Source of the DNA: an uncultured Selenomonadales bacterium
Lineage (GTDB): Bacteria > Bacillota > Negativicutes > Selenomonadales > Selenomonadaceae
DNA length: 64,000 nt
Assembly: GCA_947165295.1 (NCBI GenBank)
Contig: CAMUZU010000006.1
Span: forward strand, 20,358 to 84,357
Direction of reading: 5' to 3'
Shown here piece by piece: positions 25,767 to 41,385 of the stretch. Position numbers and translations under genes: made by a program. The notes beneath the pieces are model-generated. The model made no database searches and was not told the origin of the DNA. It saw only the letters and a list, made by a program, of their open reading frames with translations. Positions within the stretch are counted from its first letter, which is position 1, and each line of letters begins with the position of its first letter.

Positions 25767-25940
25767 TGACCGACACGTTGAAGTTGGTCAAAAAAATTTC
25801 GGTCGCTTTAAAAGCGACGGAACAGTTGACGCGTTGCGGTCGTTCAACTTTCAAGTTTGTTGCCGCGTGCGGACGTCACAAAAATTTTTACGGGAGCTTG
25901 ACAAATGGCTGATACGTTGAAACTCGTCAAAAAAATTTCG
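25766..25940 (+). mobile_element. GCTTTAAAAGC-hairpin element (103 nt) flanked by diverged 36-bp direct repeats at the hypC/hypD junction
   Basis: DR1 ATGACCGACACGTTGAAGTTGGTCAAAAAAATTTCG, DR2 ATGGCTGATACGTTGAAACTCGTCAAAAAAATTTCG. The insert starts GTCGCTTTAAAAGCGACGGAACAGTTGAC. Confidence 0.65.
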
Positions 25941-26981
25941 CGGCTGTCGGCGGGCAAGCCTCGTCTGCGGTTCATGGAAGTTTGCGGCACGCACACCGTC
26001 GCGATTTTCCGTTCGGGCATTCGGCAAATCCTTCCCGAAAACGTCGAGCTTGTGTCGGGGCCCGGCTGTCCCGTTTGCGTCACCGACGACGATTTTGTCG
26101 ACAAGGCGATCGCTTACGCACGCAAGAAAAATTTCATCGTGGCGACGTTCGGCGACATGCTCAAAGTTCCCGGCACGCGTTCGACATTGGCACGGGAAGT
26201 AGCGAACGGCGCACGCGTCGAGGTCGTTTATTCGCCGCTGGACTGCCTGGACATCGCGAAGAAACATCCGCGCAAGTCGGTAATTTTTTTGGCGGTCGGT
26301 TTCGAGACGACGGCTCCGACGCAAGCGGCGACGGTCTTGGCGGCACGGGCTCACGGCGTGAAAAATTTGTTCATGCTGTCGGCGCAGAAACTTGTTCCGC
26401 CCGCGTTGAAATTTTTGCTTGACGACGCGGCTGTCAACGTCGACGGATTTTTGTTGCCGGGACATGTGGCGGTTGTCACGGGCGCGGACGAATTCAACTT
26501 CCTTGCGGACGAATTCAAAATCCCGTCGGCTGTCAGCGGCTTCGAGGCGGACGAAATTTTGACGGCGTTGACGAGTCTGCTTGAACAGGTCGACACGGGT
26601 CAAGTTCGCGTCGCCAACGATTATCGCAAGGTCGTCACAGCTCAAGGCAACGTCACCGCGAAAAAAATTCTCGCGCAGGTTTACGAGGTCACGGACGCTT
26701 CGTGGCGCGGCATGGGCATGATTGCGAATTCGGGTCTGAAGTTGCGCGACGAATTTGCCGACTTCGACATTGAACGCGTCGAGCCGATTGAAGTTGAACG
26801 CGTCGAAAAGAAGTCCGCCTGTCGTTGCGGTGAAGTTCTGCGCGGCATCGTCAAGCCGACGGATTGTCCGCTGTTCGGCAAGGTCTGTCAGCCGCTTCAC
26901 GCCATCGGCGCGTGCATGGTTTCCGTCGAAGGCGTCTGCGCGACCTGGTTCAAGTACGGCGGCGGGAAATTTAATTTTTGA
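25905..26981 (+). CDS. hypD: Hydrogenase maturation protein HypD
   Basis: 358 aa with FMEVCGTHT, GPGCPVCVT and the C-terminal ...CACGEVL-like Cys motif. Confidence 0.92.
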   Translation: MADTLKLVKKISRLSAGKPRLRFMEVCGTHTVAIFRSGIRQILPENVELVSGPGCPVCVTDDDFVDKAIAYARKKNFIVATFGDMLKVPGTRSTLAREVANGARVEVVYSPLDCLDIAKKHPRKSVIFLAVGFETTAPTQAATVLAARAHGVKNLFMLSAQKLVPPALKFLLDDAAVNVDGFLLPGHVAVVTGADEFNFLADEFKIPSAVSGFEADEILTALTSLLEQVDTGQVRVANDYRKVVTAQGNVTAKKILAQVYEVTDASWRGMGMIANSGLKLRDEFADFDIERVEPIEVERVEKKSACRCGEVLRGIVKPTDCPLFGKVCQPLHAIGACMVSVEGVCATWFKYGGGKFNF

Positions 26982-28067: not shown

Positions 28068-29078
28068 TTACGCTTCCCGCCACGAAGAAGTTTCGCGGTT
28101 GTAGACGTAACTTTGACCGCTTGCAAGTTTGAAAGTCGGCGAAATGTTGTCGCTTAAGGAAACCATTGCAACTTCGCCCGTGTTGAATTCGATTGCGATT
28201 GAATTGTCGCTTACCGACGTCGAAACAATGTCGCTCAAGGCCGCGTCGTAAAAGTGAACAGTGTCCGCGCCGTCGGTGTCGAAGACCAGGTCGTTGCCGT
28301 CGGTTCGGCTGACGAAAATGTTATCCGCCTGCGCCGTGCCGAAAAATTCGTTCGCGTTGCTCCAAGTTTCGTCTGAAGCCATGTCGTAAGATGAAGTCGA
28401 AATTCCGAGTGCCGTCTTGTAGTTGGCGATAAGTTCTTCAAAGGCGGCTTGCGATTCGTTGGAGGTGAACACGTTGACGCCCGTAAGCGCGCCGTTTTCC
28501 ACAATGACAACGTCGCCGTATATGCTTGAAAACATTACGTGATTTTCGATGACTTGTCCCGTCCATTCGGCAATGGAACCGTAGATGTAAATGACGTCTT
28601 GAGCTTTGTGGTCACGAATTTCATCATAACCGCAGTATGGAGCGATTTCAAAAATATCGACACCGTCACCGCTGACCAGTCTGTCGTAAGAAAAATCCAT
28701 GCTGCCGCCGTTTAAAGTTGCCATGCCGGAAGCGAAATTTGCAACGATATCTGAACCACCGTCGCCGCTCAAATAAACAGCAGAAGCGTTATCGGATATG
28801 TTAGCGACAATGTCGTCTCCCGCGCCGCCGAATAAAAATCCCATACTCGACATATTGCTCAGCGTATCATTGCCATCGCCTCCCGCTAAAAATGCGGGCA
28901 CAATATTCATCATTGTATCATCGCCGATACCGCCGTCAGTATAAGAAAGAAAGCCAGCTGTAAAGATGGTGTCGTTGCCACCGTAGCCGTAGACGTATCC
29001 TGAGTTGACGTAGTTTTCGATATAGTCGGCGTCTGCGGTACCTTCGACGGTGTTCAACGTCGTGTTGTAAATGTCCAT
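28068..29078 (-). CDS. RTX-like calcium-binding repeat protein
   Basis: 336 aa with repeated GG.G.D nonapeptide-type motifs (GGNDTIF, GGIGDDTM, GGDGNDTL, GGAGDDIV, GDGGSDIV). No N-terminal signal peptide. AAGGAGAG RBS. Confidence 0.7.
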   Translation of the reverse strand: MDIYNTTLNTVEGTADADYIENYVNSGYVYGYGGNDTIFTAGFLSYTDGGIGDDTMMNIVPAFLAGGDGNDTLSNMSSMGFLFGGAGDDIVANISDNASAVYLSGDGGSDIVANFASGMATLNGGSMDFSYDRLVSGDGVDIFEIAPYCGYDEIRDHKAQDVIYIYGSIAEWTGQVIENHVMFSSIYGDVVIVENGALTGVNVFTSNESQAAFEELIANYKTALGISTSSYDMASDETWSNANEFFGTAQADNIFVSRTDGNDLVFDTDGADTVHFYDAALSDIVSTSVSDNSIAIEFNTGEVAMVSLSDNISPTFKLASGQSYVYNRETSSWREA

Positions 29079-29325: not shown

Positions 29326-30321
29326 ATGGACGACAAAATTTTGGCGGCACACGGCGCGGGCGGCAAGTTGAGTTCGCAGCTGTTGCACGAAGTGATTCTG
29401 CCCGCCTTCGACAACGAAATTTTAAACGAGCTTCACGACGGCGCGAAAATCGGTCGACTTGCAATGACGACGGACAGTTACGTCGTGCGGCCGATTTTTT
29501 TTCGCGGCGGAAACATCGGCAAACTCGCGATTTGCGGCACGGTCAACGATTTGGCCGTCACGGGCGCAATTCCAAAATTTATTTCCGTCGGCTTGATTAT
29601 CGAAGAAGGCTTCGACATCTCCGCGCTGAAAAAAATCGTCGGCTCAATGGCAGATGCGGCGCGTGAGTCCGGCGTCAAAATCGTCACCGGCGACACAAAA
29701 GTTGTCGGCAAAGGTCAGGCGGACGGAATTTTTATCAACACCGCAGGCGTCGGCGAACTGATTAACGGCGTCGATATTTCTGCAAAAAACGTTCGCGCAG
29801 GCATGAAAGTTCTAATTTCGGGCACAATCGGCGACCACGCAACGACAATTCTCGCAGGAAGACACGGTTTACAGCTTCCCGACAGCGTAAAATCCGATTG
29901 TGCGCCCTTAAACGGCCTGATTAAAGAAATTTTGACCGTCGAACCGCAAATTTCTATGCTTCGTGACGCTACTCGCGGCGGAATTGCCGCTGTGTTGAAC
30001 GAAATTGCCCAATCAGCGCACGTCGGCATACTGATTGACGAAAAAAACATCCCCGTGCATGATGAAATTCGCGGCGTGTGCGATATTTTGGGCTTCGACG
30101 TGCTTGAACTCGCCAATGAAGGCAAATTTATCGCGATTGTGCCCGAAAATTCCGCCGAAAACGTTCTTTCGGTCATGCACAAGCACATTTACGGCAAAAA
30201 CGCGGCCATTATCGGCGAAATCACGTCGAATTCGCCCGAAAAAGTCGGTTTGAAGACTTTAATCGGCGGTGTACGCATTGTTGACATGCCTGCAGGCGAA
30301 CTTGTGCCGCGAATTTGCTGA
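29326..30321 (+). CDS. hypE: Hydrogenase maturation protein HypE
   Basis: 331 aa, AIR-synthase-like fold, with the HypE C-terminal ...PRIC. Confidence 0.92.
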   Translation: MDDKILAAHGAGGKLSSQLLHEVILPAFDNEILNELHDGAKIGRLAMTTDSYVVRPIFFRGGNIGKLAICGTVNDLAVTGAIPKFISVGLIIEEGFDISALKKIVGSMADAARESGVKIVTGDTKVVGKGQADGIFINTAGVGELINGVDISAKNVRAGMKVLISGTIGDHATTILAGRHGLQLPDSVKSDCAPLNGLIKEILTVEPQISMLRDATRGGIAAVLNEIAQSAHVGILIDEKNIPVHDEIRGVCDILGFDVLELANEGKFIAIVPENSAENVLSVMHKHIYGKNAAIIGEITSNSPEKVGLKTLIGGVRIVDMPAGELVPRIC

Positions 30322-30334
30322 GGAGGCGACCTTC

Positions 30335-32428
30335 ATGGAGCAACGAACGCGTGAAATCTTGAAATTTCTGCTTCGCGAACAAGATTTTCGCACAACAGCC
30401 GAGGTTGCGGCTCAAATTTCCGTCAGCGCAAAGACTATTTCGCGTCAACTGCCCAAAGTTGAGCAAGTTTTGAACTCCGCAGGCCTAAAACTCGAAAAAA
30501 AGTCCGGCGCAGGCCTCTTAATCGTCGGAAGTGAGGTCAAACGCTACGCTTTGGCCGCTCATTTGAAGTCAATCGACAAAAAAGAGTACACTCCGAGCGA
30601 AAGACGGTCGATTATCATCAGTAAATTGCTTTCAAGCCGCGAACCGATTAAACTTTTCGTGCTTTCAAGCGCAGTTCACGTCACTGATTCGACGATTAGC
30701 AACGATTTGGACAAGTTGGAGCCCTGGTTTCGCGAACAAAGCCTTAAACTTTTGCGAAAACCGGGTCTCGGAGTCAGTTTGCTCGGCGATGAACGCGATT
30801 TTCGACGCGCAATCGTGCGTTATATCTATAATCACGTCGGCGAAGAGCGTTTGCTCGGCCTTTTGCAGGACAATTTGCCCGAAAATGACGACGCATCGGT
30901 CGCTCAAGTGTCAAAATTCCTGCTTGAACTCATTGATGCGGGCGAATGGCGGCGTTTGGAGCAACTTATTCGCGTCACGGAGGCCGATTTGGGCTGCAGA
31001 TTGTCCGATAATGCCTTTATCGGGCTTGTTGTGCACCTTTCGTTGGCACTTCGACGCATAAAACACCACGAATCTATCACTTTGGACAACGAAATCACCG
31101 TTCGACTGCGTGAAACTCGCGAATTTGCCGCCGCGAAGAAACTTTCAAGCAAAATTTCGGAGATTTTCGGCGTCGAAATGCCCGAAAGCGAAATTTTTTA
31201 CATCACAATGCACATTTTGGGCGCACGAAGCCGTTTCAGCTCCGCAAATTTGGGAAATATCTCCATGATGGACAATTTTCGGCTCGTTACGTTGGCAAAA
31301 AAGGTCATGAAACACGCCGCGAACATCACCGGACGCGATATTGATAAGAATCAGAGCCTTTTGGCGGGTCTCGTGAACCATCTTGCGCCCACAATCAGCC
31401 GTTTAAAGCTCAATATGGACATCCGCAACCCACTTTTGAACGAAATTCGCACGCATTACCCCGAATTAATGAGTTTAACGCGCCGTTGCGTCGCAGAAAT
31501 TGAGTCTGAAGTCGGAAAAACGCTCCCCGAAGCCGAAATTGCCTACATTGCAATGCATTTGGGCGCGGCTTTGTCCGACAGTGAGAAGTTTTTGCACGCA
31601 ATTCACCGCGTTGTTGTCGTTTGTCCGACCGGAATGGGCACTTCAAGGCTTTTGGCAAGCCGTTTGCGCGCAAATTTCCCCACGATCAAGATTGTAGACG
31701 AAATTCCCGTGCTTGAATTGACTTCCGACTACATTTCAAGCAAAGATTTCGACTTTATCGTCTCGACTGTGCCGATTTCGCGGGCAAAACGACCCGTTAT
31801 CGTCGTCAGTGCCGCGTTAATCGACTCAGATAAGCAAAAAATCGACGCCGAACTGTCCCGACAGAACAAAAATTTCCTCGCAAGTGCCGAAGAACCCGAA
31901 TGGAGGCCGCAATTTTTCGATGCAATGACGAAAATCACCGCTTACGGCCGCACAATCGCCGAATTGATGACGAATTTCTTCTTTGTACGCGAAAAAATCG
32001 ACTCAATCAACGCCGCGTGCGAACTTGCGGGCAATTTGGCGGGCGAAAACCCCGAAAATCGCCAAGAAATTGCCAAATCGTTGCTTTTGCGCGAAGATGA
32101 AGGCTCAACTTTGATTGTCGGGCGGCATATGATACTTTTACACTGCAAAAGTGCCGCCGTGAAGGCCGCTTCGTTCGGAATTTTGCAACTCGGCGACGGT
32201 TTTTGCTATCCTGCGGGCTCTGAAGTCGTAAAAACTGCGATTGTTTTGCTTGCGCCGGCCGATTCCGACGAATGCGCGCTCGAAACTATCGGTCATATCG
32301 CTTCCGTGCTCTTGGATCGCTGGGGATTTATCGAAATTCTTCACGAAGGCGACGGAAATGAGATTCGCAGCGAGATTTTGAAGATTTTTGAGGACTTCTA
32401 TCGAACGCGCCTGAAGGAACTGCTGTAA
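30335..32428 (+). CDS. PRD-domain transcriptional regulator with PTS EIIB-like and EIIA-like modules (MtlR/LicR type)
   Basis: 697 aa. N-terminal wHTH (ILKFLLREQDFRTTAEVAAQISVSAKTISRQL), PRD segments (YITMHILGA, YIAMHLGAA), EIIB-like VVVCPTGMGTSRLLASRLR and a C-terminal EIIA-like domain. Confidence 0.8.
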   Translation: MEQRTREILKFLLREQDFRTTAEVAAQISVSAKTISRQLPKVEQVLNSAGLKLEKKSGAGLLIVGSEVKRYALAAHLKSIDKKEYTPSERRSIIISKLLSSREPIKLFVLSSAVHVTDSTISNDLDKLEPWFREQSLKLLRKPGLGVSLLGDERDFRRAIVRYIYNHVGEERLLGLLQDNLPENDDASVAQVSKFLLELIDAGEWRRLEQLIRVTEADLGCRLSDNAFIGLVVHLSLALRRIKHHESITLDNEITVRLRETREFAAAKKLSSKISEIFGVEMPESEIFYITMHILGARSRFSSANLGNISMMDNFRLVTLAKKVMKHAANITGRDIDKNQSLLAGLVNHLAPTISRLKLNMDIRNPLLNEIRTHYPELMSLTRRCVAEIESEVGKTLPEAEIAYIAMHLGAALSDSEKFLHAIHRVVVVCPTGMGTSRLLASRLRANFPTIKIVDEIPVLELTSDYISSKDFDFIVSTVPISRAKRPVIVVSAALIDSDKQKIDAELSRQNKNFLASAEEPEWRPQFFDAMTKITAYGRTIAELMTNFFFVREKIDSINAACELAGNLAGENPENRQEIAKSLLLREDEGSTLIVGRHMILLHCKSAAVKAASFGILQLGDGFCYPAGSEVVKTAIVLLAPADSDECALETIGHIASVLLDRWGFIEILHEGDGNEIRSEILKIFEDFYRTRLKELL

Positions 32429-32436
32429 ATTTTCAC

Positions 32437-32464
32437 CCCGTCAACCGTGACGGGAATTTTTTTT
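32437..32464 (+). terminator. Intrinsic terminator after the PRD regulator
   Basis: CCCGTCA-ACCG-TGACGGG plus a T8 run. Confidence 0.8.
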
Positions 32465-32555: not shown

Positions 32556-33455
32556 ATGAAAGATTATGTCGCTGAATTCCGACAAGCCGTCGCCGCCATT
32601 GACGCCGACGCGCAACGGGTCAACATCATCAACGCCGGCATCATGAATCACGGCAAAAGTTCGCTGCTTAATTCGTTGCTCGACAAAGTTGTTTTCGCCG
32701 AACAAGACGTGCGCACGACGATTGCAGTTCAAGCCGAACATTGGCGCGACAACGTTTATTTAATTGACACGCCCGGTCTTGACGCGAAATCCGAAGACGA
32801 CACCGCCGCTTACGAGGCCTATCGACGCGCCAACGTTATTTTGTTCGTCCACCGCGTCGACACGGGCGAATTGCACAGGGACGAAATCGACGGTCTCAAT
32901 CGAATCAAAAACATTTTCGCAGGCGGAAACTTCGTCGAACATTTTTGCTTGATTTTTACTGTCACCGATTCAAAGGAAACGCCCGAAGATCTCAAAGTCA
33001 TTTGCGACAAATCGCTTGCCGACATCAAAAATCACTGCGGACTGTCGGGCTTCAGAAATTTTTGCGTGTCGAATTCGCTGTACAGGCAGGGCAAAGACGA
33101 ACACGAAGATTTATTCGTCGAGGACAGCGGCGTCCTTGAACTGCGCGAATATCTCGAACGAAATTTCGACAAGTGGCGCGGAGAAAATCAAGCCGTCCGC
33201 AACGCCCGAATTGCCCGCGAAAAAGACGACTTCATTTCGCGACTGCAACGGGAGCGTTCCGACGTTCAAGCGCGTATTCAGTCGAAAAGCGAACGAATTC
33301 GGCAGCGTCAACAAAATTTTTTGCACAAAGTCGAAACGGCGTTAAGTCAGCGGCGCGACGACGAATCACGTTACAATTCCGAATCACGGCGGCTTGACGA
33401 AATGCGTCGCGAACTGCAAAATCTGCGTGACCGTTGGAACCGCGAACGTTACTGA
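32556..33455 (+). CDS. GTPase (dynamin/Era-like G domain) with a C-terminal coiled coil
   Basis: 300 aa. G1 AGIMNHGKSS, G3 DTPGL. The R/E/Q-rich C-terminal ~100 aa is heptad-like. AAAGGAGG RBS. Confidence 0.75.
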   Translation: MKDYVAEFRQAVAAIDADAQRVNIINAGIMNHGKSSLLNSLLDKVVFAEQDVRTTIAVQAEHWRDNVYLIDTPGLDAKSEDDTAAYEAYRRANVILFVHRVDTGELHRDEIDGLNRIKNIFAGGNFVEHFCLIFTVTDSKETPEDLKVICDKSLADIKNHCGLSGFRNFCVSNSLYRQGKDEHEDLFVEDSGVLELREYLERNFDKWRGENQAVRNARIAREKDDFISRLQRERSDVQARIQSKSERIRQRQQNFLHKVETALSQRRDDESRYNSESRRLDEMRRELQNLRDRWNRERY

Positions 33456-33474
33456 AATTTTCGGAGGTGATTTT

Positions 33475-33876
33475 ATGGCGTTCATTTGGGCTGTACCTGC
33501 GGGCGCGCTCGTTTACAAAGCCGCTCACGGCGATTATTCCGACCACAGCAGACACAGCAGGTATCACGAATACGGCGATTCGGCTTTGCGTGAACAAATT
33601 CGTCGCAAGGAGACCGACATCAGCCGCAAAGAATCCGACGTTGAAACTGCGCGTCGACGCATGGAAGACAATTTCAATTCGCGTGTCAATGAACTTAAGC
33701 GCGAACGAAATTATTCGGGCTTGAATTACGTGCCGAACATGATGGTTTCCGAAGTCAAAGACAACATGCGCCGCGAACTTGACAACGAACTCAAGCACGA
33801 CCGCGACGAACTTGCCGCCATTGACGATATGATTAGCCGAATTAACGAACTTGAATTGCAGGTGAAGCGCAAATGA
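33475..33876 (+). CDS. Coiled-coil protein, paralog 1 (hydrophobic N-terminus plus His/Ser/Tyr-rich patch)
   Basis: 133 aa. MAFIWAVPAGALVYKAAHGDYSDHSRHSRYHEYGDS..., then a coiled coil. GGAGGTG RBS. Confidence 0.65.
   Translation: MAFIWAVPAGALVYKAAHGDYSDHSRHSRYHEYGDSALREQIRRKETDISRKESDVETARRRMEDNFNSRVNELKRERNYSGLNYVPNMMVSEVKDNMRRELDNELKHDRDELAAIDDMISRINELELQVKRK
33764..33836 (+). repeat. 73-nt segment identical to 34192-34264 (3' ends of the two coiled-coil paralogs)
   Basis: Compared base by base by eye. Confidence 0.85.
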
Positions 33877-34301
33877 GCGACCTTGAAGATTATTACTACG
33901 AAAGGTTTGCAGAAGCTTTTAATTGTGAAAATGTAGCGCGTACAATATTTCGTTCAATTGCGGGAGCTACGGGTCTTGCCGTCAAAGGTGTCAACGACAA
34001 ACTCGCCGAAATTCGTTGGGCGATTGAAGACAAAGAAAAATTGATTCGCCGCAAAGAATTCGACGTTGAAAATCTTCGGCGTTGCGTCGACGAAAATTTT
34101 TCGACACGAATCAACGAACTTCGTCGCGAAAAATTTTATCCCGCGTTTAACTACTCGACGACCGCGAATTTGTTGACGAACATCAAAGCCGACATGCGCC
34201 GCGAACTTGACAACGAACTCAAGCACGACCGCGACGAACTTGCCGCCATTGACGATATGATTAGTCGGATTAACGAATTGGAACTTCAAAGCACAAGGTG
34301 A
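33873..34301 (+). CDS. Coiled-coil protein, paralog 2
   Basis: 142 aa with an ATGA overlap with paralog 1. The C-terminal 35 aa is identical to paralog 1 (MRRELDNELKHDRDELAAIDDMISRINELELQ). Confidence 0.65.
   Translation: MSDLEDYYYERFAEAFNCENVARTIFRSIAGATGLAVKGVNDKLAEIRWAIEDKEKLIRRKEFDVENLRRCVDENFSTRINELRREKFYPAFNYSTTANLLTNIKADMRRELDNELKHDRDELAAIDDMISRINELELQSTR
34192..34264 (+). repeat. 73-nt segment identical to 33764-33836
   Basis: Compared base by base by eye. Confidence 0.85.
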
Positions 34302-34305
34302 TTTT

Positions 34306-36069
34306 ATGAGCTACATTACGCAGACCGTCGACGAATTTTTTATCAAGCTCGACAAGATGCAACGCGACCTTGACAAATTTTCGCAGAACCTTGACCGTCG
34401 CAGCGAACAAATTCCGTCGCTGTTGAAAACTTTTGAGCAGACCGTTTTCACTGCGAGCGGCAAAAAAATTTCGGGCAATAACGCCGTCGAACGCGCCGCT
34501 CAAAAATCGTTGGACAACATGCGCGCCGTCGTCGAAAGTTGGCGTGACAAAATCGAAGCCGACCGCAAAGGCAAACAGTTTATCGCGAAGAACGAAAAAT
34601 TTCTCGTCGTGATGGTTTTCGGTGCAGTCAAAGCCGGCAAGTCGACACTCGGAAATTTCTTCGCGGGCAAAAATTTTCTCAACGCGCCGTTCGATAACCG
34701 TTACAAACAAATTTCCAAGCCGATTTTCGAGACCGAAGAGAGCGGCCGCGACACGGGCGGAATTGAAACCGATTCAAGCGGCGACACCTGGTTTAAAGAA
34801 GGTCACGTCGACACGACGGGCGCGATTCAATTTTTCACGCTCAGCGGACTGCGCTGGATTGATTCGCCCGGCACGGGAGCCGTCGGCAAGTCGGGCGACA
34901 GCAAAGACATGACCGCGCTCGTCGAAGAATATTTGCGATATACCGACATGTGCATTTTCCTGATGAACAGCGGCTCGCCCGGACTGCAAGACGACATGCG
35001 ATATATTCAAAAACTCAGCCGCGACGGGCAGGACGCCTTGATTGTCATCACGCGCTCCGACAAAAACAAAGCCGTAATTTTGCGCGACGAAAACGGCAAC
35101 AAGCAACGCGGTTCCGTGCTTGTCCCGAAAGACGACGCGACCCGCAAACTTCAAGAGGACGACATCTGCAAGCGCGTCAAGGAAGAATATCCCGAAGTCG
35201 ACGTGCAAAAGTTCCGCGCAATCAGCACGTCGACCGCGTTGGCATGTGAAGCCGTCAACGAACAGAGCGACGAAAAATTTCGTGACAGCGGTCTCGATAA
35301 GCTCATGCAGATTTTGGGCGACAAAGTCAGCGACAATGCCATTGCCCGTAAGCAGGAAAATCCGCGCAGGTTGCTCAACGGTTTCGTCGACACCATTGTT
35401 GACGACCTGAAAAATTTCGACAGCGACCTTGACGAAATGACCGCCGCCGTCGAAAAATACAAAGCCGACATGAAACGCTTGACGACGCTGATTGTCAGCA
35501 ATGTGAGCCGTGAAGTTCGGTCGGAAATTTCATCACGCGCCATTGATTGGAACCGTCAAGTCAACCGCGGCGGGAAAGTCGACAACGAGACAATCGCCGC
35601 CGCCGTCACCGAAATTTTGCGCGACAAACTTAACGCCGAAATCAATTCGCAGATGCGCCGCGTCATCGAAGATTTTCAGAGCAACGAACTCAAAACCGTC
35701 AAGGCGAACATTTCCGCCGCCGCGCTCGAAAAGAAAACCGTCGAAATTTCGCACACGTACACCGAAAGCTACACCGTCGAACGCGAACCCGAAGGCATCA
35801 TCGAAAACATTCGCGGCTTTTTCGGCAAGAAATATTACCGCCGCGAAGACGAGACGCGCACGAAAACGCAGACGATTGACTTGGGCACGAACCTCGACGA
35901 GTTTTTGGACAGCTTGACGCCGCAGGTTGAACGATACGCCAAAAGTCAAGCCGAAACGACTCTTGCCGAGTTGCGCGAAAAATATTTCGTCGAACGCGAA
36001 AATTTTGCCCGTCGGATGCGCGGCGCGATTGACAAACTTCGCGGCGAATTGCTTGCGTTGAAGTTTTGA
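34306..36069 (+). CDS. Dynamin-like GTPase (587 aa)
   Basis: G1 FGAVKAGKST, G3 DSPGTG, G4-like ITRSDK, followed by a long helical stalk-like region. Confidence 0.75.
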   Translation: MSYITQTVDEFFIKLDKMQRDLDKFSQNLDRRSEQIPSLLKTFEQTVFTASGKKISGNNAVERAAQKSLDNMRAVVESWRDKIEADRKGKQFIAKNEKFLVVMVFGAVKAGKSTLGNFFAGKNFLNAPFDNRYKQISKPIFETEESGRDTGGIETDSSGDTWFKEGHVDTTGAIQFFTLSGLRWIDSPGTGAVGKSGDSKDMTALVEEYLRYTDMCIFLMNSGSPGLQDDMRYIQKLSRDGQDALIVITRSDKNKAVILRDENGNKQRGSVLVPKDDATRKLQEDDICKRVKEEYPEVDVQKFRAISTSTALACEAVNEQSDEKFRDSGLDKLMQILGDKVSDNAIARKQENPRRLLNGFVDTIVDDLKNFDSDLDEMTAAVEKYKADMKRLTTLIVSNVSREVRSEISSRAIDWNRQVNRGGKVDNETIAAAVTEILRDKLNAEINSQMRRVIEDFQSNELKTVKANISAAALEKKTVEISHTYTESYTVEREPEGIIENIRGFFGKKYYRREDETRTKTQTIDLGTNLDEFLDSLTPQVERYAKSQAETTLAELREKYFVERENFARRMRGAIDKLRGELLALKF

Positions 36070-36078
36070 GGCAACGAC

Positions 36079-37260
36079 ATGCAAATCATTTTGAAATTGA
36101 CGACGGCTTGTAACCTGAACTGCGTCTACTGCAGCGAAGGCGACTTGCCCGCCGAAACTTTGCTGCAAGAAATTTTCTTCAAGCTGGTTGACGAACTGCC
36201 CGCGCTCCTTGACAATTTCGGTCAACGGGACGCGGAATTTTTGTTTCACGGCGGCGAACCCATGCTTTACGGGCAACAAAATTTGCGGACGCTGATCGAT
36301 TATGCGCGTGAAAATCTCGACGGTTACGACCTGCGATTTTTAATGCAGACGAACGGCACGTTGATTGACGACGCGTGGATAAATTTTTTCCGCGACGAAA
36401 AAATCTCCGTCGGCGTGTCGCTGGACGGTTATCCCGAACTTCACGACAAAAATCGCCGCACGAAGTCAAACGAGCCGACCGCCGAAAAAATTCTTTCCAA
36501 CCTGCGGAAAATGCGCGACGCGGGCTTGAGTGTCGGGACGCTGATGGTTTTCAATTCCGCCGCAACCGTCGACGCCGAAAAGCTTTTCGACTTCATTCAG
36601 GCGAACGAACTGCACCCGAAAATTCATTCGGTCGTGCCGTGCGGACGTGCTGCCGACGTGAAAAATTCCGCCGAAATTTACGACGCGTGGGTTGCGCTCA
36701 TGAAAAAACTGTTCGAGTTGTCGCTTGCCCGCGAAAGTTCAAAAGTCATTGAGCCGCTTGATGAACTTGTCGACGCGATTTTGGGTATTTCGCCGCTCCG
36801 CGAGTGTTCGTTCAACGGCACCTGCGGGAAAAATTTCGTCAGCGTTTATCCCGACGGCGAAGTCGGTTTCTGCGGACGTGACAACCTTGCACGTTGCTTG
36901 ACTTACGGCAACCTGCGCGAAAAAACGTTGCTTGAGCTGTACACGTCGACGAACGCGGAAAAAATTCGGGCGCGACAAGATTATCTTCAAACGCACGACT
37001 GCAAAAATTGTTCGGATTGGCAACTTTGTCACGGCGGCTGTGCTTTCGAGGCGGTCAACTTTTCGGGCACGCTTGAGGCGAAATATCCGCATTGTTCGGC
37101 GCGAAAAAATTTTCTGTCGTGGCTGCATGGTGACGGCTTGAAACTTTTGAAGACCGCACTTGTCCGCGAAAAGAAACGGCTTCGGCAGTCGATTCGCGTC
37201 AAAAAGCAACTGCGCGACGAAATTGAAAATCTTGGTGTTGACGATGCTTGCCCGCTTTAA
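36079..37260 (+). CDS. Radical SAM enzyme with SPASM domain (anSME/peptide-maturase-like)
   Basis: CNLNCVYC at 36109-36132. SPASM Cys motifs ECSFNGTCG...PDGEVGFCG and CKNCSDWQLCHGGC. Confidence 0.85.
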   Translation: MQIILKLTTACNLNCVYCSEGDLPAETLLQEIFFKLVDELPALLDNFGQRDAEFLFHGGEPMLYGQQNLRTLIDYARENLDGYDLRFLMQTNGTLIDDAWINFFRDEKISVGVSLDGYPELHDKNRRTKSNEPTAEKILSNLRKMRDAGLSVGTLMVFNSAATVDAEKLFDFIQANELHPKIHSVVPCGRAADVKNSAEIYDAWVALMKKLFELSLARESSKVIEPLDELVDAILGISPLRECSFNGTCGKNFVSVYPDGEVGFCGRDNLARCLTYGNLREKTLLELYTSTNAEKIRARQDYLQTHDCKNCSDWQLCHGGCAFEAVNFSGTLEAKYPHCSARKNFLSWLHGDGLKLLKTALVREKKRLRQSIRVKKQLRDEIENLGVDDACPL

Positions 37261-37326
37261 AAGCGGCGGAACAACTGGAGTTATCCGTGACGTTTTCTTG
37301 ACGATTGAGGTTTGCAACGATGCTTG
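37241..37326 (+). mobile_element. GCTTTAAAAGC-hairpin element (66 nt) flanked by 10-bp direct repeats at the radical SAM/radical SAM junction
   Basis: DR ACGATGCTTG at 37241-37250 and 37317-37326. The insert reads CCCGCTTTAAAAGCGGCGGAACAACTGGAGTTATCCGTGACGTTTTC... Confidence 0.65.
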
Positions 37327-39044
37327 ACATTCTATTTCTGAACATACACCGCCGGTATCTGAATTCTGCGCCTTCGCACGGCGGCTTTCTGGGCATTTAC
37401 CTGCTGTCGGCGTTTGTGCGTCGCGAAGGCTACGAGTCGAAAAGTTTTTCGGGCACATTGACGGCGGGACTTCAACACGTCGACGAACTTTGCGCGGCGG
37501 GCGAAGTCGACATGATCGGGCTGTATTGCGATTACGAGAACGTCACCGAAAATATTTTTTTGAGCCGACACGTCAAGCAAACGTACAACTTGCCCGTGAT
37601 TGTCGGCGGTCCTCAAGCGACGGCACTCGACGAAAAATTTCTGCGCGAATCGAAATGTTATGCCGTTGTTCGCGGCGAAGGCGAATTGACCGTGCTTGAG
37701 CTGATGAATTTTTTTCTGGAAGATGTCGGCTCGCTCGAAAAAATTTCGGGCATTGCTTACCTGCGCGGCGACAAGTTTGCGATTAATCCCGCTCGCCCGC
37801 CGATAAAAAATTTGGACGCCTTGCCTTTCGTCGACGAGGATTGTTACCTTGAGCCGGAAGATTTTTCACGCGACTTCAGCTTGATGACGGGTCGCGGCTG
37901 TCCGTTCAACTGCGCGTTTTGTCACGAAGGCATCGGACGCGGCGTGCGTTTTCGGTCGGCTGAAAACGTGCTTGCCGAGATTGACGAACGGCTGAAAAAT
38001 TTTCCGCCCGACGACGAACTTTACATTTTGTTCACGGACGACACGTTTACGCTCGACGGTGCACGCGTCAAAAAAATCTGCGACGGGCTTGCCGAACGCC
38101 GCAAGTCGCGCAGATTCAAATTTTTTTGCGAAGGTCACGTGCACACGCTGTACAAAAATCCCAAAATGATTCGCTGCCTTGCCGCGGGTGGTTGCGTGCG
38201 ACTTCAGCTCGGCATTGAGGCCGGCACCGAAAAAGTTTTGCGCGCTTACGTCAAGCAGTCGACGCCCGAAGAAATTTTCGCTGTCGTGCGGCTTTGTCGT
38301 GACGCGGGCATTGAGCAAGTTTACGGCAACATCATTTTGGGCGGCGCGAATTTTTCACGCGAAACTTTTGCGGCGGACAAAAAATTTGCGCACGAACTCA
38401 TTGCCGAAGGTCAAGGCGTCGTCGAACTCGGCGTTGTGACTTTTTGGCCGCTTGCCGAAACGAAAATGACTCGTTGCCCCGACGAATTCGGGATAAAAAT
38501 TTGCGACGCGGACTTTTTGACTTCGGTCGGCGACTTTCCGCAAGTCGAAACTTTCGAACTTGACCGCTTGACGATTTTGGAAATGCGCCGCGAACTCACC
38601 GACGAAATTTCCGCGCAGATGGTCGATATGCTTGAAAATTGGCGCGTGCCGACGGAAAAAATTTTGTCGTGGTTGCGTGAAGCTCGGCTCCGAAAAAATT
38701 ACAGCGCGTGGTTCACCGAACTTTTGCGACGGGAAATTTTGTTCGCCTACTATGAAATGCTCGAACGCGGCGAAGGATTTCACTCCGCACAGGTCGAAAA
38801 TTTGTCGACGGCACACCCGTTGCGCGTTGTCGAACTGGTCAAACATCTGCGGCGAATCGACGCGTCGACGGCTCAAATTTGCGGCGAAACTTTTTCGGGC
38901 GACGAACTTGAAATTTTATTGCTCACGACGGGCAAACTCAGCGTCGAAGAAATTTCCCGTCGCGTCAACCGAACAATTTCCGACGTGCTGAAAATTTTGG
39001 CGCGGCTTGAACGTCGACACCTAATCGTATACACTTTGCATTGA
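37320..39044 (+). CDS. B12-binding-domain radical SAM enzyme with a C-terminal winged-helix-like extension
   Basis: N-terminal Rossmann-like B12 domain (MIGLYCDY...PVIVGGPQAT) and GRGCPFNCAFCHEG at 37899-37922. The last ~55 aa (ELEILLLTTGKLSVEEISRRVNRTISDVLKILARLERRHLIV) look wHTH/PqqD-like. Confidence 0.8.
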   Translation: MLDILFLNIHRRYLNSAPSHGGFLGIYLLSAFVRREGYESKSFSGTLTAGLQHVDELCAAGEVDMIGLYCDYENVTENIFLSRHVKQTYNLPVIVGGPQATALDEKFLRESKCYAVVRGEGELTVLELMNFFLEDVGSLEKISGIAYLRGDKFAINPARPPIKNLDALPFVDEDCYLEPEDFSRDFSLMTGRGCPFNCAFCHEGIGRGVRFRSAENVLAEIDERLKNFPPDDELYILFTDDTFTLDGARVKKICDGLAERRKSRRFKFFCEGHVHTLYKNPKMIRCLAAGGCVRLQLGIEAGTEKVLRAYVKQSTPEEIFAVVRLCRDAGIEQVYGNIILGGANFSRETFAADKKFAHELIAEGQGVVELGVVTFWPLAETKMTRCPDEFGIKICDADFLTSVGDFPQVETFELDRLTILEMRRELTDEISAQMVDMLENWRVPTEKILSWLREARLRKNYSAWFTELLRREILFAYYEMLERGEGFHSAQVENLSTAHPLRVVELVKHLRRIDASTAQICGETFSGDELEILLLTTGKLSVEEISRRVNRTISDVLKILARLERRHLIVYTLH

Positions 39045-39058
39045 GGAGGTCACACGTT

Positions 39059-40753
39059 ATGAACGAGCTGAAAGATTATCAACAGATCTTGTCCGACAAG
39101 GCGACGCGTGCCGAAACTTTTTTCGCGAAATATCCCGACGCCGACGCGCTTGCCAAAAATTTCGCCGACATCAACGCGGGCAAAATTCGCAAAGTCGAGC
39201 CCGAAATCATGGTTTACGGCATTTACAACGCGGGCAAGTCCAGCATTTTGAACGAAGTTATCGGCGCGGACAAGGCAAAAGTCGCGGACGTGCCGACGAC
39301 CGACACGGTGACTTATTACGAGTGGAACGGCTACCGAATCGCCGACACGCCCGGCATTTTCGCGCCAATCGCTCACCAGAACGTTACGCAGGAACATCTC
39401 AAAAAAGCCGACATCGTCCTGTTCGTCATGAGCAACGACGGTCAATACGAGCGCAAAGAAAATTACCTGCGCATGAAAGACATCGCCGACGCGGGCAAAA
39501 AAGTTATCATCGTGCTCAACGACAAAGACGGCATGTTGGGCGAACGCAATGACGCGCTTCAAGACGTTAAGCGGAAAATCGCCGTGAACATGAAAACGGT
39601 CGGCATTGAAAACGTCGACGAAAAATATTGTATCGTCACGGTGAACGCGGATCTTGCGCATCAAGGTCGCCTGGAAAACGAACCGTTGTTTGTCGCCGAC
39701 AGCGGGCTTGATGAACTCAAAAGCGTCATCCTCAGCGAACTCAAACGCACGACTTCGTTCGTCCTGTTGCGCAACGGAATCACGCAACTCGAAGAAATTT
39801 TGACCGAATTCGTCGACCAACTCGAATCACGGGAAAGTTCCGCTCTGCTGCGTGAAATGAATCGCGTACTCGAAACCTTCAACCGACAAAAAATTTCCAT
39901 GCGCCGCGACATCAACGCGTTTATCGACCGGCAGGCGGACACTTTCGGCGCGACGTTGCCGCAGAAAATTTGGGACAACCGCGACAGTCAAGACCGCATC
40001 AACGAAGTTTTCGGCGCGGAAATCGAACGTTTCAACTCACGCGTTCAACAGGAAATTCAACGTCAAATTCAAGACGCGGCGACGATTTTGGAACTTGAAC
40101 TTAAATCCTTCACCGAAGTGAAACTCGACGCGTCAACCGTCGACACCGCAAGTTTCGGAAAAATTTTGTCGCGGCTCAACGAAGTCAACGCCTCGTCAAC
40201 TCAAGCACTTGTCGCACGTGACGGCGAATCGAAAGTTGACCCGCTGACAACGGGCTTGACGACGACATTTTTGGCAGACGGCGGCGCGATAATCGCCAAA
40301 GAAGTCGCCAAAACCGCGCTCGGCAAGGCGATAACCAATTCCGCGCTCGGAAAAATTTTAACTTCGGTCGTGCCCGCGCCGTTCGTGCCAATCACCGTGA
40401 TTGTCGGCGGAATTCTTTTGCTCAAAAAACTTTTCGGCGGCGACGACGGCAAGGAACTCAACGCGCAAGTCGACGCAAAAAACGAGGCGGAACGTCGACG
40501 CGTCGAGGCCGAAATGCAAGCGCGGCAGGAACTCAATCAGAAATGCCGTTACCTTGCCGAAGAACTTGCCGACGACTTGAAATCCGCCGCAGATTTGGGC
40601 ATCGCCGAAACTTTGGCAATGTACGAGGAGCCGTTCAAAGCCGAAATCGCCGCACGAAAATCCGAGACCGCGCAGGTTGCCGACGACGTTTTGAAGTTGC
40701 GCGAACTGCTCAACGAATACGATTTACTTCGCGTCGAATTGGGCGCACGATAA
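39059..40753 (+). CDS. Dynamin-like GTPase with a hydrophobic paddle/TM segment (564 aa)
   Basis: G1 YGIYNAGKSS, G3 DTPGIF, G4 LNDKD, helical stalk, and hydrophobic ILTSVVPAPFVPITVIVGGILLLKKLF (nt 40355-40432). Confidence 0.75.
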   Translation: MNELKDYQQILSDKATRAETFFAKYPDADALAKNFADINAGKIRKVEPEIMVYGIYNAGKSSILNEVIGADKAKVADVPTTDTVTYYEWNGYRIADTPGIFAPIAHQNVTQEHLKKADIVLFVMSNDGQYERKENYLRMKDIADAGKKVIIVLNDKDGMLGERNDALQDVKRKIAVNMKTVGIENVDEKYCIVTVNADLAHQGRLENEPLFVADSGLDELKSVILSELKRTTSFVLLRNGITQLEEILTEFVDQLESRESSALLREMNRVLETFNRQKISMRRDINAFIDRQADTFGATLPQKIWDNRDSQDRINEVFGAEIERFNSRVQQEIQRQIQDAATILELELKSFTEVKLDASTVDTASFGKILSRLNEVNASSTQALVARDGESKVDPLTTGLTTTFLADGGAIIAKEVAKTALGKAITNSALGKILTSVVPAPFVPITVIVGGILLLKKLFGGDDGKELNAQVDAKNEAERRRVEAEMQARQELNQKCRYLAEELADDLKSAADLGIAETLAMYEEPFKAEIAARKSETAQVADDVLKLRELLNEYDLLRVELGAR

Positions 40754-40772
40754 ATTTTTGGAGGTTTTAAAC

Positions 40773-41333
40773 TTGAGTACTTTGACTTTGGCTCGTGCGA
40801 AGGAAATTCTTCGCAAACACGTCACCGAACCGCATCTTTTCGTTCACGCGGCCGCCGTAAGCGCGTCAATGGGCGCGTTAGCCGATTTTTTCGGCGAAAA
40901 TAAGGATCATTGGGCTGCAATCGGCTATTTGCACGACGTTGACTTTGAAAAATTCCCAAATGAGCACTGTCAACACGTCAGAGAGCTGCTTGAACCCGAA
41001 AATATCGACGAAAACGACATCAAAACCATAATTTCGCACGGTTTTGGCCTCACGGGCGCGGAAATTAAGCCCGAAACCGTTTGTCAGAAGAGTTTATTCG
41101 CCGTCGACGAGCTTACGGGCATAATTCACGCTTACGCGCTCATGCGACCCGAAAAAATGGCCGGAATGTCCGTCAAAAGTCTCAAAAAGAAGTTCAAAGA
41201 CCGCCGATTTGCCGCAAAATGCAATCGCGACGTGATTCAGCGCGGCGCAGACGACCTCGGAGTCGATTTGGGCACGTTAATGGAGCTTTGCATACGCGGA
41301 ATGGCCGAAAATGCCGCCGAACTCGACTTGTAA
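40773..41333 (+). CDS. HD-domain phosphohydrolase
   Basis: HAAAVSASMGALA...IGYLHDVDFEKFPNEH HD motif. TTG 40773 lies 7 nt after GGAGGT. Last gene before the terminator. Confidence 0.7.
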   Translation: MSTLTLARAKEILRKHVTEPHLFVHAAAVSASMGALADFFGENKDHWAAIGYLHDVDFEKFPNEHCQHVRELLEPENIDENDIKTIISHGFGLTGAEIKPETVCQKSLFAVDELTGIIHAYALMRPEKMAGMSVKSLKKKFKDRRFAAKCNRDVIQRGADDLGVDLGTLMELCIRGMAENAAELDL

Positions 41334-41345
41334 ATCGATTTTGAG

Positions 41346-41385
41346 CAAAAAAATAGCCCCGTCAATCAATCGACGGGGTTTTTTC
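41346..41385. terminator. Bidirectional terminator closing the GTPase/radical-SAM operon and the U32 gene
   Basis: A-run, CCCCGTC/GACGGGG hairpin, T6. Confidence 0.8.

Follow-up and report, generated by a model that had tools for sequence, protein, structure and literature searches.

A six-gene cassette of Eleos-related dynamin-like GTPases, two radical SAM enzymes and a candidate radical SAM-matured membrane protein

This work concerns a gene cassette in a 64,000-nt stretch of contig CAMUZU010000006.1 from an uncultured Selenomonadales bacterium; that whole stretch is called the window below. Eight genes at 32556-41333, numbered g1 to g8 in order, include a six-gene core in which three GTPases related to Eleos/LeoABC, two radical S-adenosylmethionine (SAM) enzymes and one small protein are always encoded together. 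We put at about even the chance that this core is an accessory, Eleos-related dynamin machine with a membrane component matured by radical SAM enzymes, in the manner of peptides that are made by the ribosome and modified after translation (RiPPs), and that it likely protects the cell at the level of the membrane. The parts are of known kinds: Eleos-like dynamins, a SPASM enzyme of the type that makes cyclophanes or matures sulfatases anaerobically (anSME), and a class B radical SAM enzyme. What is new is that they are obligatorily joined, and that the apparent substrate is a full-length membrane protein. A preliminary description of this DNA had known of no described system with this combination, and a full-text search of the literature on dynamin, Eleos or LeoA with radical SAM, SPASM, RiPP or triceptide did not find it either. 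The small protein is not covered by any PADLOC v2 model, and none there is specific for g5 or g6.

Results

A six-gene core in unrelated surroundings

The core genes and the repeat segment of the small protein, with the basis of each assignment, are as follows.

32556..33455, + strand: g1, short GTPase of 299 aa, core (Pfam/PADLOC, motifs)
33475..33876, + strand: g2, small protein of 133 aa, core, proposed radical SAM substrate (family alignment)
33526..33579, + strand: triplet-repeat segment of g2, residues 18-35 (translation)
34306..36069, + strand: g4, LeoBC-like dynamin-family GTPase of 587 aa, core (PADLOC, Pfam)
36079..37260, + strand: g5, radical SAM/SPASM enzyme of 393 aa, core (Pfam, NCBIfam, PDB profile search)
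37320..39044, + strand: g6, cobalamin-dependent (class B) radical SAM enzyme of 574 aa, core (Pfam, AlphaFold2, Foldseek)
39059..40753, + strand: g7, LeoA-like bacterial dynamin-like protein (DLP) of 564 aa, core (PADLOC, AlphaFold2, Foldseek)

Loci for comparison (L001 and so on) were gathered through g6 homologues, one genome per GTDB species was scanned with a g6 alignment, and every open reading frame (ORF) of the fetched loci was searched with the window proteins. The core, g1-small protein-g4-g5-g6-g7, is intact in about 25 other loci (genomes and metagenome contigs) from three phyla. Its hosts include many Selenomonadaceae, Quinella, Anaerovibrio lipolyticus An883, Megasphaera and Veillonella caviae DSM 20738, and further Succinimonas and another member of the Succinivibrionaceae (Gammaproteobacteria) and a metagenome-assembled genome (MAG) of the Lachnospiraceae. 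All known carriers are anaerobes, and by their annotation the closest homologues belong to Selenomonadaceae sampled from rumen and gut. Identity of g6 across the intact loci ranges from 46 to 75%, and contigs taken from the bottom of the match lists for g5 and g6 (52-55% identity) still hold the same six genes. One lineage (L001 and L012) has the circularly permuted order g5-g6-g1-cc-g4-g7, where cc is the small coiled-coil protein.

The preliminary description had staked its reading on the genes being syntenic in other genomes. They are, far beyond chance and amid unrelated flanks. Because those flanks differ in almost every genome, the cassette, as judged from the compared loci, fits an accessory unit that has spread horizontally. 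Base composition as a sign of acquisition was rejected: the GC content of the cassette (50-52%) is inside the range of its flanks (43-57%) and gives no clear foreign signal.

Three GTPases related to LeoA and LeoBC

Dynamin_N of Pfam is at or over its cut-off in g1, g4 and g7 alike. The short g1 (MMR_HSR1 5e-13, AIG1 1.9e-9, Dynamin_N 4.8e-8) has the G1 motif GIMNHGKS, the G3 motif DTPG, a possible G4 motif TVTD and a short C-terminal coiled-coil tail, and it matches the PADLOC model of LeoA at 3.4e-15; these matches make it a predicted AIG1/GIMAP-like GTPase related to LeoA/LeoBC. In g4, with motifs GAVKAGKS, DSPG and TRSD and no hydrophobic segment, Dynamin_N scores 27.5 bits (cut-off, 27). 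This protein matches PADLOC LeoBC at 2.6e-18 over model positions 23-430 of 601, and a sequence search gave it no PDB match.

The match of g7 (MMR_HSR1 and Dynamin_N in Pfam) to PADLOC LeoA spans the full length, at 2.2e-35. Motifs GIYNAGKS and DTPG are present, and LNDKD at G4 does not match strictly. Strong hydrophobicity is confined to aa 429-461 (nt 40343-40441; mean hydropathy, 2.33), a segment within a low-confidence loop (381-465) of the AlphaFold2 model. Besides this hydrophobic loop, that model (predicted local distance difference test score [pLDDT], 72.8) shows a G domain and long helices in pairs. Its best Foldseek matches, in alignments of more than 600 columns, are BDLP (2j69; 6e-10), LeoA (4aur), IniA (6j72) and the Campylobacter DLP pair (5oxf), followed by dynamin, OPA1 and Mx; the low TM-scores (~0.3) are what a flexible multidomain fold would lead one to expect. 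A phmmer search gave no sequence similarity to the LeoA of the PDB. By its modeled fold, then, g7 is a bacterial DLP with a predicted helical stalk and membrane paddle. A hydrophobic paddle had been proposed for it from the start, and the hydropathy of aa 429-461 bears this out; hydropathy plots gave no membrane paddle or hydrophobic hairpin in g1 or g4.

The preliminary description had also allowed that these might be ordinary Era-, EngA- or HydF-type GTPases; they proved to be LeoA/LeoBC-like instead. Era, EngA, HydF and ribosome-assembly GTPases were all rejected as identities, the NCBIfam models matching the G domain only and far under their cut-offs (HydF gives 42.6, 17.7 and 21.1 bits on the three proteins, with a cut-off of 325). 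We likewise rejected an analogy with the HydE/HydF/HydG maturation of [FeFe]-hydrogenase, in which, besides the low HydF scores, neither HydE nor HydG had a match.

A small membrane protein with tandem aromatic triplets

The small protein g2 has no match in Pfam, NCBIfam or PADLOC. In the window it consists of a hydrophobic N-terminus, six in-phase triplets (HGD-YSD-HSR-HSR-YHE-YGD, residues 18-35), a coiled coil and, at the C-terminus, a helix that is conserved (…AIDDMISRINELELQ). An exhaustive search of 1.84 billion cluster representatives yielded 96 representatives of its family, 92 of which were analyzed together with copies from the fetched loci. They have a common plan: a hydrophobic N-terminus of about 16-20 residues, rich in Gly, Ala and Val; 2-6 head-to-tail triplets of the form [His/Tyr]-Ser-[Asp/Asn/Arg/Gln/Glu/Lys]; a Y-(G/S)-D-(A/S) junction and then the coiled coil; and, as the most conserved part, the C-terminal helix E-L-x-x-I-D-x-M-I-x-R-I-N-E-[IL]-E-L-Q.

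The triplets are far denser than composition would give. At least two [aromatic]-S-x triplets occur in 82 of the 92 representatives, His and Tyr being almost all of the aromatics, and [HY]-S-[DNRKEQ] is found 3.22 times per protein, compared to 0.24 in composition-preserving shuffles (~13-fold). The distance from one aromatic residue to the next is exactly 3 in 402 of ~540 intervals. YSD is the most frequent triplet (89), followed by HSN (55), HSR (32), HSD (29), YSE (26) and HSQ (20). When every ORF of 60 aa or more in 85 loci was considered, proteins of the g2 family were the only ones with at least three triplets within 30 residues.

Darobactin is made on W-S-K and dynobactin on H-S-Y, each with Ser as the middle residue. 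On sequence grounds the g2 family follows the aromatic-X-X pattern of such cyclophane substrates, triceptides included. In triceptides, the ring of the aromatic residue in an aromatic-X2-X3 motif is cross-linked to the C-beta of X3; established motifs include HTK, HAA, HNR and YDR, often in several copies per precursor (PMC11499958). The preliminary description had entertained a RiPP-like pathway on a coiled-coil protein as one of three hypotheses, and the tandem aromatic-Ser-x triplets of the g2 family lend it concrete support.

The SPASM enzyme g5

In every cassette, g5 is encoded within three genes of the small protein. It has the Radical_SAM and SPASM domains of Pfam, a CX3CX2C motif (CNLNCVYC) at C11/15/18 and a complete set of auxiliary-cluster cysteines (243, 249, 265, 308, 311, 317, 321 and 339), and there is no N-terminal extension of the RiPP recognition element (RRE) type. 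Its NCBIfam matches all fall under the family cut-offs, given here after each score in bits: DynA, 196/450; anSME (TIGR03942), 158/349; DarE, 136/650; YhhB, 133/445; GrrM/OscB, 98/310; FxsB, 89/370; and XyeB, 76/450. Searched against the PDB, the g5 family profile matches anSME at full length (146 bits), then ChlB (99 bits) and CteB (92 bits). ChlB makes triceptides, its native motif being YDR.

Taken with the triplets of g2, these matches suggest that g5 most likely cross-links the triplets, aromatic to C-beta, as in the triceptide, darobactin and dynobactin pathways. As an alternative, it may oxidize the near-invariant Ser of the triplets to formylglycine in the manner of anSME. Two closer identities were tried and rejected. 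A match to prokaryotic viperin in PADLOC (pVip; 1.2e-14) covers the radical SAM core only (residues 4-208); g5 has a SPASM domain, and viperin-type PDB entries reach 29-32 bits, compared to 146 for anSME. As for a true anSME, the score is 158 against the required 349 bits, no sulfatase is encoded in the cassette, and the sulfatase motif C/S-x-P/A-x-R does not occur in g2.

The B12 enzyme g6 and its relatives

By domains and fold, g6 is a class B radical SAM enzyme. Pfam finds B12-binding (36.7 bits; cut-off, 32.1), Radical_SAM and a TrmB-like match at residues 538-574, and the radical SAM cysteines are C194/198/201 (motif GRGCPFNCAFC). Its AlphaFold2 model (pLDDT, 80.6) matches OxsB, the protein methylase MgmA, TsrM, CysS and TokK in Foldseek, with E values of 1e-13 to 1e-16. 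HpnJ is the top NCBIfam match, at 109 bits with a cut-off of 577.6, and TIGR03975 gives 61 bits with a cut-off of 282. A C-terminal domain of ~190 aa, helical and winged-helix-like, is absent from generic B12 radical SAM enzymes.

Outside the cassette, relatives of g6 at 30-38% identity adjoin Nif11-leader or NHLP-leader precursor genes, and in loci L033-L047 the g6 match extends into or through the C-terminal domain. These relatives mostly form tandem arrays of 2-7 in Sporomusa, Synergistia, Vulcanimicrobiota, Wallbacteria and UBP16, and occur singly in Oscillospiraceae. The precursors (58.8 bits for Nif11-leader, cut-off 32.3; 54.8 bits for NHLP-leader, cut-off 50.9) have GG cleavage sites and hydrophobic cores rich in Val, Ala, Thr, Gly and Ile. 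In a neighbor-joining tree, built without support values, the enzymes associated with dynamins and those of the PDC-M09 cassette described below form one clade in which the latter are nested twice; a Sporomusa NHLP pair is the sister group, and the Nif11 arrays come next outward. Methyl transfer to an unactivated carbon of a peptide or protein is inferred for g6 because these relatives adjoin RiPP precursor genes; the target is probably a hydrophobic, membrane-inserting segment, which is the least certain step of our proposal. Among ORFs of at least 60 aa in the 85 loci, no triplet protein was found beside g6 homologues in nondynamin contexts.

The loci with B12 radical SAM enzymes and Nif11 or NHLP precursors (L033, L034-L047, L049 and L050; e.g., L043:3738-15324 and L050:6629-11614) look, from their gene content, like uncharacterized proteusin-like RiPP clusters. 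In one of them, L050, the precursor genes number nine, stand in tandem and end in AACGL/ACGI.

A second cassette with a B12 enzyme was seen at L003:7358-13046, L004, L016:7107-11731, L020:1556-7248 and L036:7111-11731. It encodes two helical glycine-zipper membrane proteins, a CxxCxxCC protein of ~90 aa and the enzyme, with a protein of ~170 aa in some loci and a vWA protein in L003 and L020. The membrane proteins match the PADLOC defense candidates PDC-M09A (1e-29) and PDC-M09B (4e-12), and the M09A-like protein of L016 has a weak match (1.2e-6) to the C-terminal part of LeoBC. In L003 the cassette has type III CRISPR-Cas genes on one side and cas1/cas2 on the other. Just downstream of it in L036 (12671-13402) is the gene of a protein that has the C-terminal domain of FtsZ. 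In L017 (2964-5439; Anaerovibrio lipolyticus), a tubulin/FtsZ-family GTPase of 326 aa lies directly upstream of g1, preceded by three small unknown proteins. The link of the FtsZ family to these cassettes may be a recurring association or a coincidence.

Boundaries of the locus and genes outside the core

The remaining features of the locus are as follows.

32437..32464, + strand: terminator-like hairpin at the 5' boundary (32437-32454, then a T run; 7-bp stem, 5 GC pairs)
41355..41380, no strand assigned: bidirectional terminator-like hairpin at the 3' boundary (9-bp stem, 6 GC pairs, T runs on both strands)
33873..34301, + strand: g3, g2 paralogue of 142 aa, lineage specific, noncore (alignment, locus comparison)
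40773..41333, + strand: g8, HD-domain protein of ~186 aa, noncore (Pfam HD, locus comparison)
30269..32428, + strand: PRD/Mga-helix-turn-helix (HTH)/EIIB/EIIA regulator, upstream context (Pfam PRD 3.3e-44, PTS_EIIA_2, Mga, PTS_IIB)

ORF translation and a hairpin scan gave eight co-directional ORFs on the + strand at 32556-41333, with terminator-like hairpins at both ends. The upstream hairpin closes the gene of the PRD regulator, and the downstream one is common to the end of the cassette and a convergent U32 peptidase gene. Across the whole region, terminator-like sites number 34, compared to a shuffle expectation of 35, and for this reason we give weight to the two strong hairpins alone. The layout of eight genes between two terminators that the preliminary description had drawn was thus confirmed, with every ORF in place and every quoted motif found. 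Its eight-gene operon narrows, however, to a conserved unit of six, with g3 and g8 as lineage-specific extras, and the gap between g5 and g6 is 44-59 nt, outside the 4-19 nt that it gave. A TTG at 37305 is an alternative start of g6, the start having been judged from the homologue alignment. An AGGAGG lies 7 nt ahead of the ATG of g1, and g8 most likely starts at TTG 40773, with GGAGG just ahead. No riboswitch or other RNA element in the window was matched by Rfam.

The paralogy of g2 and g3 noted earlier stands, but the two are not equivalent: the alignment shows g3 without the hydrophobic N-terminus and without the triplets of g2. Their 3' ends are 92% identical over 106 nt (33755-33860 and 34183-34288), and the 5' halves are wholly different. 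The start context of g2 with its ribosome-binding site, AGGTGATTTTATG, is repeated at the start of g4 with 82% identity over 22 nt (33465-33486 and 34296-34317). Together, the two repeats point to a recent origin of g3 through gene conversion or duplication in tandem. It is missing from the other cassette loci fetched, and the family search returned one g3-like representative (P0380).

The HD protein g8 scores 21.2 bits against Pfam HD (cut-off, 22). Its homologues follow g7 only in L091 and L092 (82% and 94% identical), with the same U32-peptidase/DUF805/P5CR genes downstream, and it is not next to any other cassette locus compared. Confined to the lineage of the window and to one chromosomal position, g8 was rejected as an effector or part of the system; in the window it is probably cotranscribed with the cassette.

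The PRD activator that the preliminary description placed just upstream is indeed there in the window; its link to the cassette is limited to the closest relatives (L006 and L021/L086), which share the upstream HypCDE synteny, and a role as a component of the system is not supported. In two other genomes an XRE-type HTH gene precedes the cassette, and the others have no regulator at that place. Upstream in the window are a putative HypD-like ORF at 25905-26981, named from its position alone, and, at 29326-30321, a HypE-like protein with an AIRS domain; the order HypC-HypD-HypE-PRD-cassette is also seen in L086/L021 and probably in L006. On the - strand at 28068-29078 is an ORF of 336 aa with GGxGxD-like repeats (GNDTI, GDGNDTL, GAGDDIV and GDGGSDIV), reminiscent of RTX calcium-binding repeats and without a Pfam match.

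Two further loci depart from the common layout. In an unclassified MAG (L022:5505-11752), a distinct P-loop GTPase of 585 aa is followed by g1, a small protein that has only two aromatic-X-X triplets, and the two enzymes g5 and g6; homologues of g4 and g7 were not detected in this locus, and its 585-aa GTPase is not detectably similar to either. On a 2.79-Mb Selenomonas MAG contig (L031:6991-11763), the homologues of g4, g5 and g6 are split into several ORFs, through decay or long-read indel errors.

Defense genes in the neighborhood

Some cassettes have defense-type surroundings: three GmrSD genes, DUF927 and a PhdYeFM/PIN toxin-antitoxin pair in L001, BrnT and IS605 in L086, and a NERD-UvrD helicase in V. 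caviae. Strong PADLOC matches among 115 flanking ORFs of 13 loci were WYL (three), Cas6f, ShosA, PsyrA, a DRT helicase, PDC-M33 and PDC-M37, the PADLOC and Pfam flank scans having been counted per family and not assigned to individual loci.

Discussion

We imagine that g2 is matured like a RiPP yet kept as a whole protein, since the cassette encodes no protease or exporter. Its triplets would be the substrate of g5, for a cross-link most likely or for oxidation of Ser as the alternative, and g6 would probably C-methylate the hydrophobic segment that inserts into the membrane, this target being the least certain. Once matured and anchored in the membrane, g2 might dock to the GTPases through its C-terminal helix and serve as their membrane adaptor, trigger or effector. 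The role that such a machine would most likely have is protection at the membrane, against phage as with Eleos or against envelope damage.

A number of observations weigh against this proposal. No cassette homologue turned up in phages or among IMG/VR contigs, and plasmids gave distant matches only (25-29% identity, none close); carriage by phage or plasmid was rejected on these searches. The g6 homologues of the second cassette, at 46-63% identity, work without a GTPase, SPASM enzyme or triplet protein. Against the LeoA/HP0731 model of NCBIfam (cut-off, 325), g7 has no match and g1 reaches 18 bits. Because g5 and g6 are both under every curated family cut-off, their chemistry is not assignable, and the cyclophane and formylglycine routes, each a change of -2 Da per site, are not separable by sequence. 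The target proposed for g6 is weak because the family members of Succinimonas locus L027 and of P0398 keep the triplets and are missing the hydrophobic N-terminus. Finally, most flanking genes (such as those for RuvB, HypD, transketolase and PNPase) are housekeeping genes, those of the window included. With the likeness of the GTPases to LeoA and LeoBC, the PDC-M09 partners of the g6 clade, the defense genes beside some cassettes and the sporadic distribution in its favor, we hold the defense reading at moderate strength; an anti-phage role of the cassette appears plausible but, given the mostly housekeeping flanks, is unproven.

Of the hypotheses first offered for this locus, an Eleos-like defense module with a radical SAM/HD effector arm survives in its first half: the module is Eleos-like, but the HD gene is not among the conserved genes, and there is no sign of an arm that modifies nucleotides. 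Modification of lipids by the radical SAM enzymes found no support, the nearest outside relatives of g6 being those that adjoin RiPP precursor genes.

One can envision a more specific arrangement, in which RiPP chemistry is built into a dynamin-like immune machine: cross-links, and possibly C-methyl groups, would arm a membrane-anchored effector that the three GTPases deploy against phage, and g6 would be a portable "arming" module shared with PDC-M09. We regard this as possible, with considerable doubt. A system of membrane remodeling or repair outside immunity, comparable to IniBAC or DynA, with the matured small protein as a structural anchor and envelope damage in anaerobes as its cue, seems unlikely to us. 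The mycobacterial iniBAC genes, which encode two DLPs and a small accessory protein and are induced by cell-wall stress, would be its model, one of the best structural matches of g7 is IniA, and mostly housekeeping flanks, with no defense gene near the cassette of the window, would suit it. Yet the sporadic occurrence across three phyla, with an insertion site that differs almost everywhere, fits a mobile accessory trait better; moreover, some loci lie in clear defense neighborhoods, and the clade of g6 partners proteins that are defense candidates in PADLOC.

The membrane protein might also be the source of a released product. The N-terminal and triplet part of g2 would then be cleaved by a protease encoded elsewhere to give a membrane-active compound such as a bacteriocin, with the dynamins in self-protection or vesicle export; LeoABC of enterotoxigenic Escherichia coli was reportedly proposed to act in a vesicle-type release of toxin. 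Enzymes of a precursor-modifying type, repeated aromatic-X-X motifs, the Nif11/NHLP precursor genes beside outside relatives of g6, and the conserved Y-G/S-D-A/S junction after the triplets as a possible processing site are what one would expect of such a cluster. It is set back by ~25 cassettes with no protease, transporter or recognizable leader, by a putative core that is N-terminal and followed by a conserved coiled coil of ~90 aa, unlike known leader-core layouts, and by the C-terminal helix, whose place as the most conserved part argues that the whole protein is functional. We consider this origin quite improbable. Slimmer still is the chance that the two radical SAM enzymes act on small molecules, either a nucleotide, as viperin does, or a lipid, in the manner of HpnJ/HpnR or ladderane enzymes, with the small protein as a scaffold. 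The matches of g5 to pVip (1.2e-14) and of g6 to HpnJ (109 bits) would suggest it, but both reflect the shared radical SAM core and lie far under cut-offs. In addition, g5 has a full two-cluster SPASM domain and scores far higher with families that modify peptides or proteins, the C-terminal domain of g6 is common only to relatives that adjoin RiPP precursors, and the HD hydrolase g8 is not conserved with the cassette.

The likeness of the matured-membrane-protein machine that we favor to systems already described is closest on the GTPase side. Eleos is a two-gene anti-phage system of the dynamin-like proteins LeoA and LeoBC, the latter related to GIMAP/AIG1 GTPases (bioRxiv 10.1101/2022.12.12.520048). 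As in Eleos/LeoABC, several dynamin-family GTPases are co-encoded: g7 resembles LeoA, g4 resembles LeoBC and g1 resembles LeoA/AIG1, and LeoA (4aur) is among the top folds of g7. The cassette differs in that the pair of radical SAM enzymes and the triplet protein are obligatory. The trio is Eleos-related yet falls short of Eleos on two counts, because the NCBIfam LeoA/HP0731 model is not reached and the genes are six, not two.

On the enzyme side, the cassette shares with the triceptide, DarE and DynA pathways a SPASM enzyme without an RRE that adjoins a candidate substrate with repeated aromatic-X2-X3 motifs. It differs in a proposed substrate that is a membrane-anchored coiled-coil protein of ~135 aa with an N-terminal "core," in a g5 that is under the family cut-offs, in the absence of a leader, protease or exporter from any cassette, and in being embedded in a GTPase operon that has little of the look of a natural-product cluster. 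The enzyme anSME, the closest solved structure to the g5 family, is likewise a SPASM enzyme with two auxiliary clusters and acts on Ser or Cys of a protein substrate, whereas the target motif of g5 would be [H/Y]-S-x and no sulfatase gene is present. Relatives of g6 outside the cassette have the layout of proteusin/polytheonamide clusters, with several B12 enzymes beside hydrophobic-core precursors, and the N-terminus of the g2 family and the Gly-zipper segments of PDC-M09 are of similar composition to such precursors; the window, in contrast, has no Nif11 or NHLP leader and a single B12 enzyme, not an array. The PDC-M09 cassettes (L003, L016, L020 and L036) share an enzyme of the g6 clade (46-63% identity) and helical, glycine-rich membrane proteins, and they differ in having a CxxCxxCC protein and a vWA protein and none of the GTPases, SPASM enzyme or triplet protein.

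The closest precedent in concept, with RiPP chemistry placed in NTPase-based operons of immune type, is FxsA/FxsB in the VMAP ternary conflict systems, in which a radical SAM/SPASM enzyme is predicted to modify the FxSxx of a co-encoded peptide (PMC7159879). Those systems have vWA-MoxR and AP-ATPases in place of dynamins, another motif and another peptide architecture, and they include a peptidase.

To our knowledge, how bacterial DLPs and Eleos recognize and act on membranes is largely unknown. GTPases with an obligatory membrane partner that is apparently matured chemically give an experimental handle on the membrane action of dynamins, and the cassette is tractable because cultured carriers exist (Veillonella caviae DSM 20738 and Anaerovibrio lipolyticus An883). 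For radical SAM enzymology, it offers a candidate new class of substrate, a full-length membrane protein with tandem His/Tyr-Ser-x triplets, and in g6 an uncharacterized clade of B12 enzymes that moves between two membrane-protein modules. For the genome mining of RiPPs, it indicates that precursor-like motifs can occur in structural proteins outside natural-product clusters. If the cassette is indeed an immune machine, its small protein would be a new class of posttranslationally matured immune effector, and the cassette would provide the first functional link of bacterial dynamins to protein modification by radical SAM enzymes.

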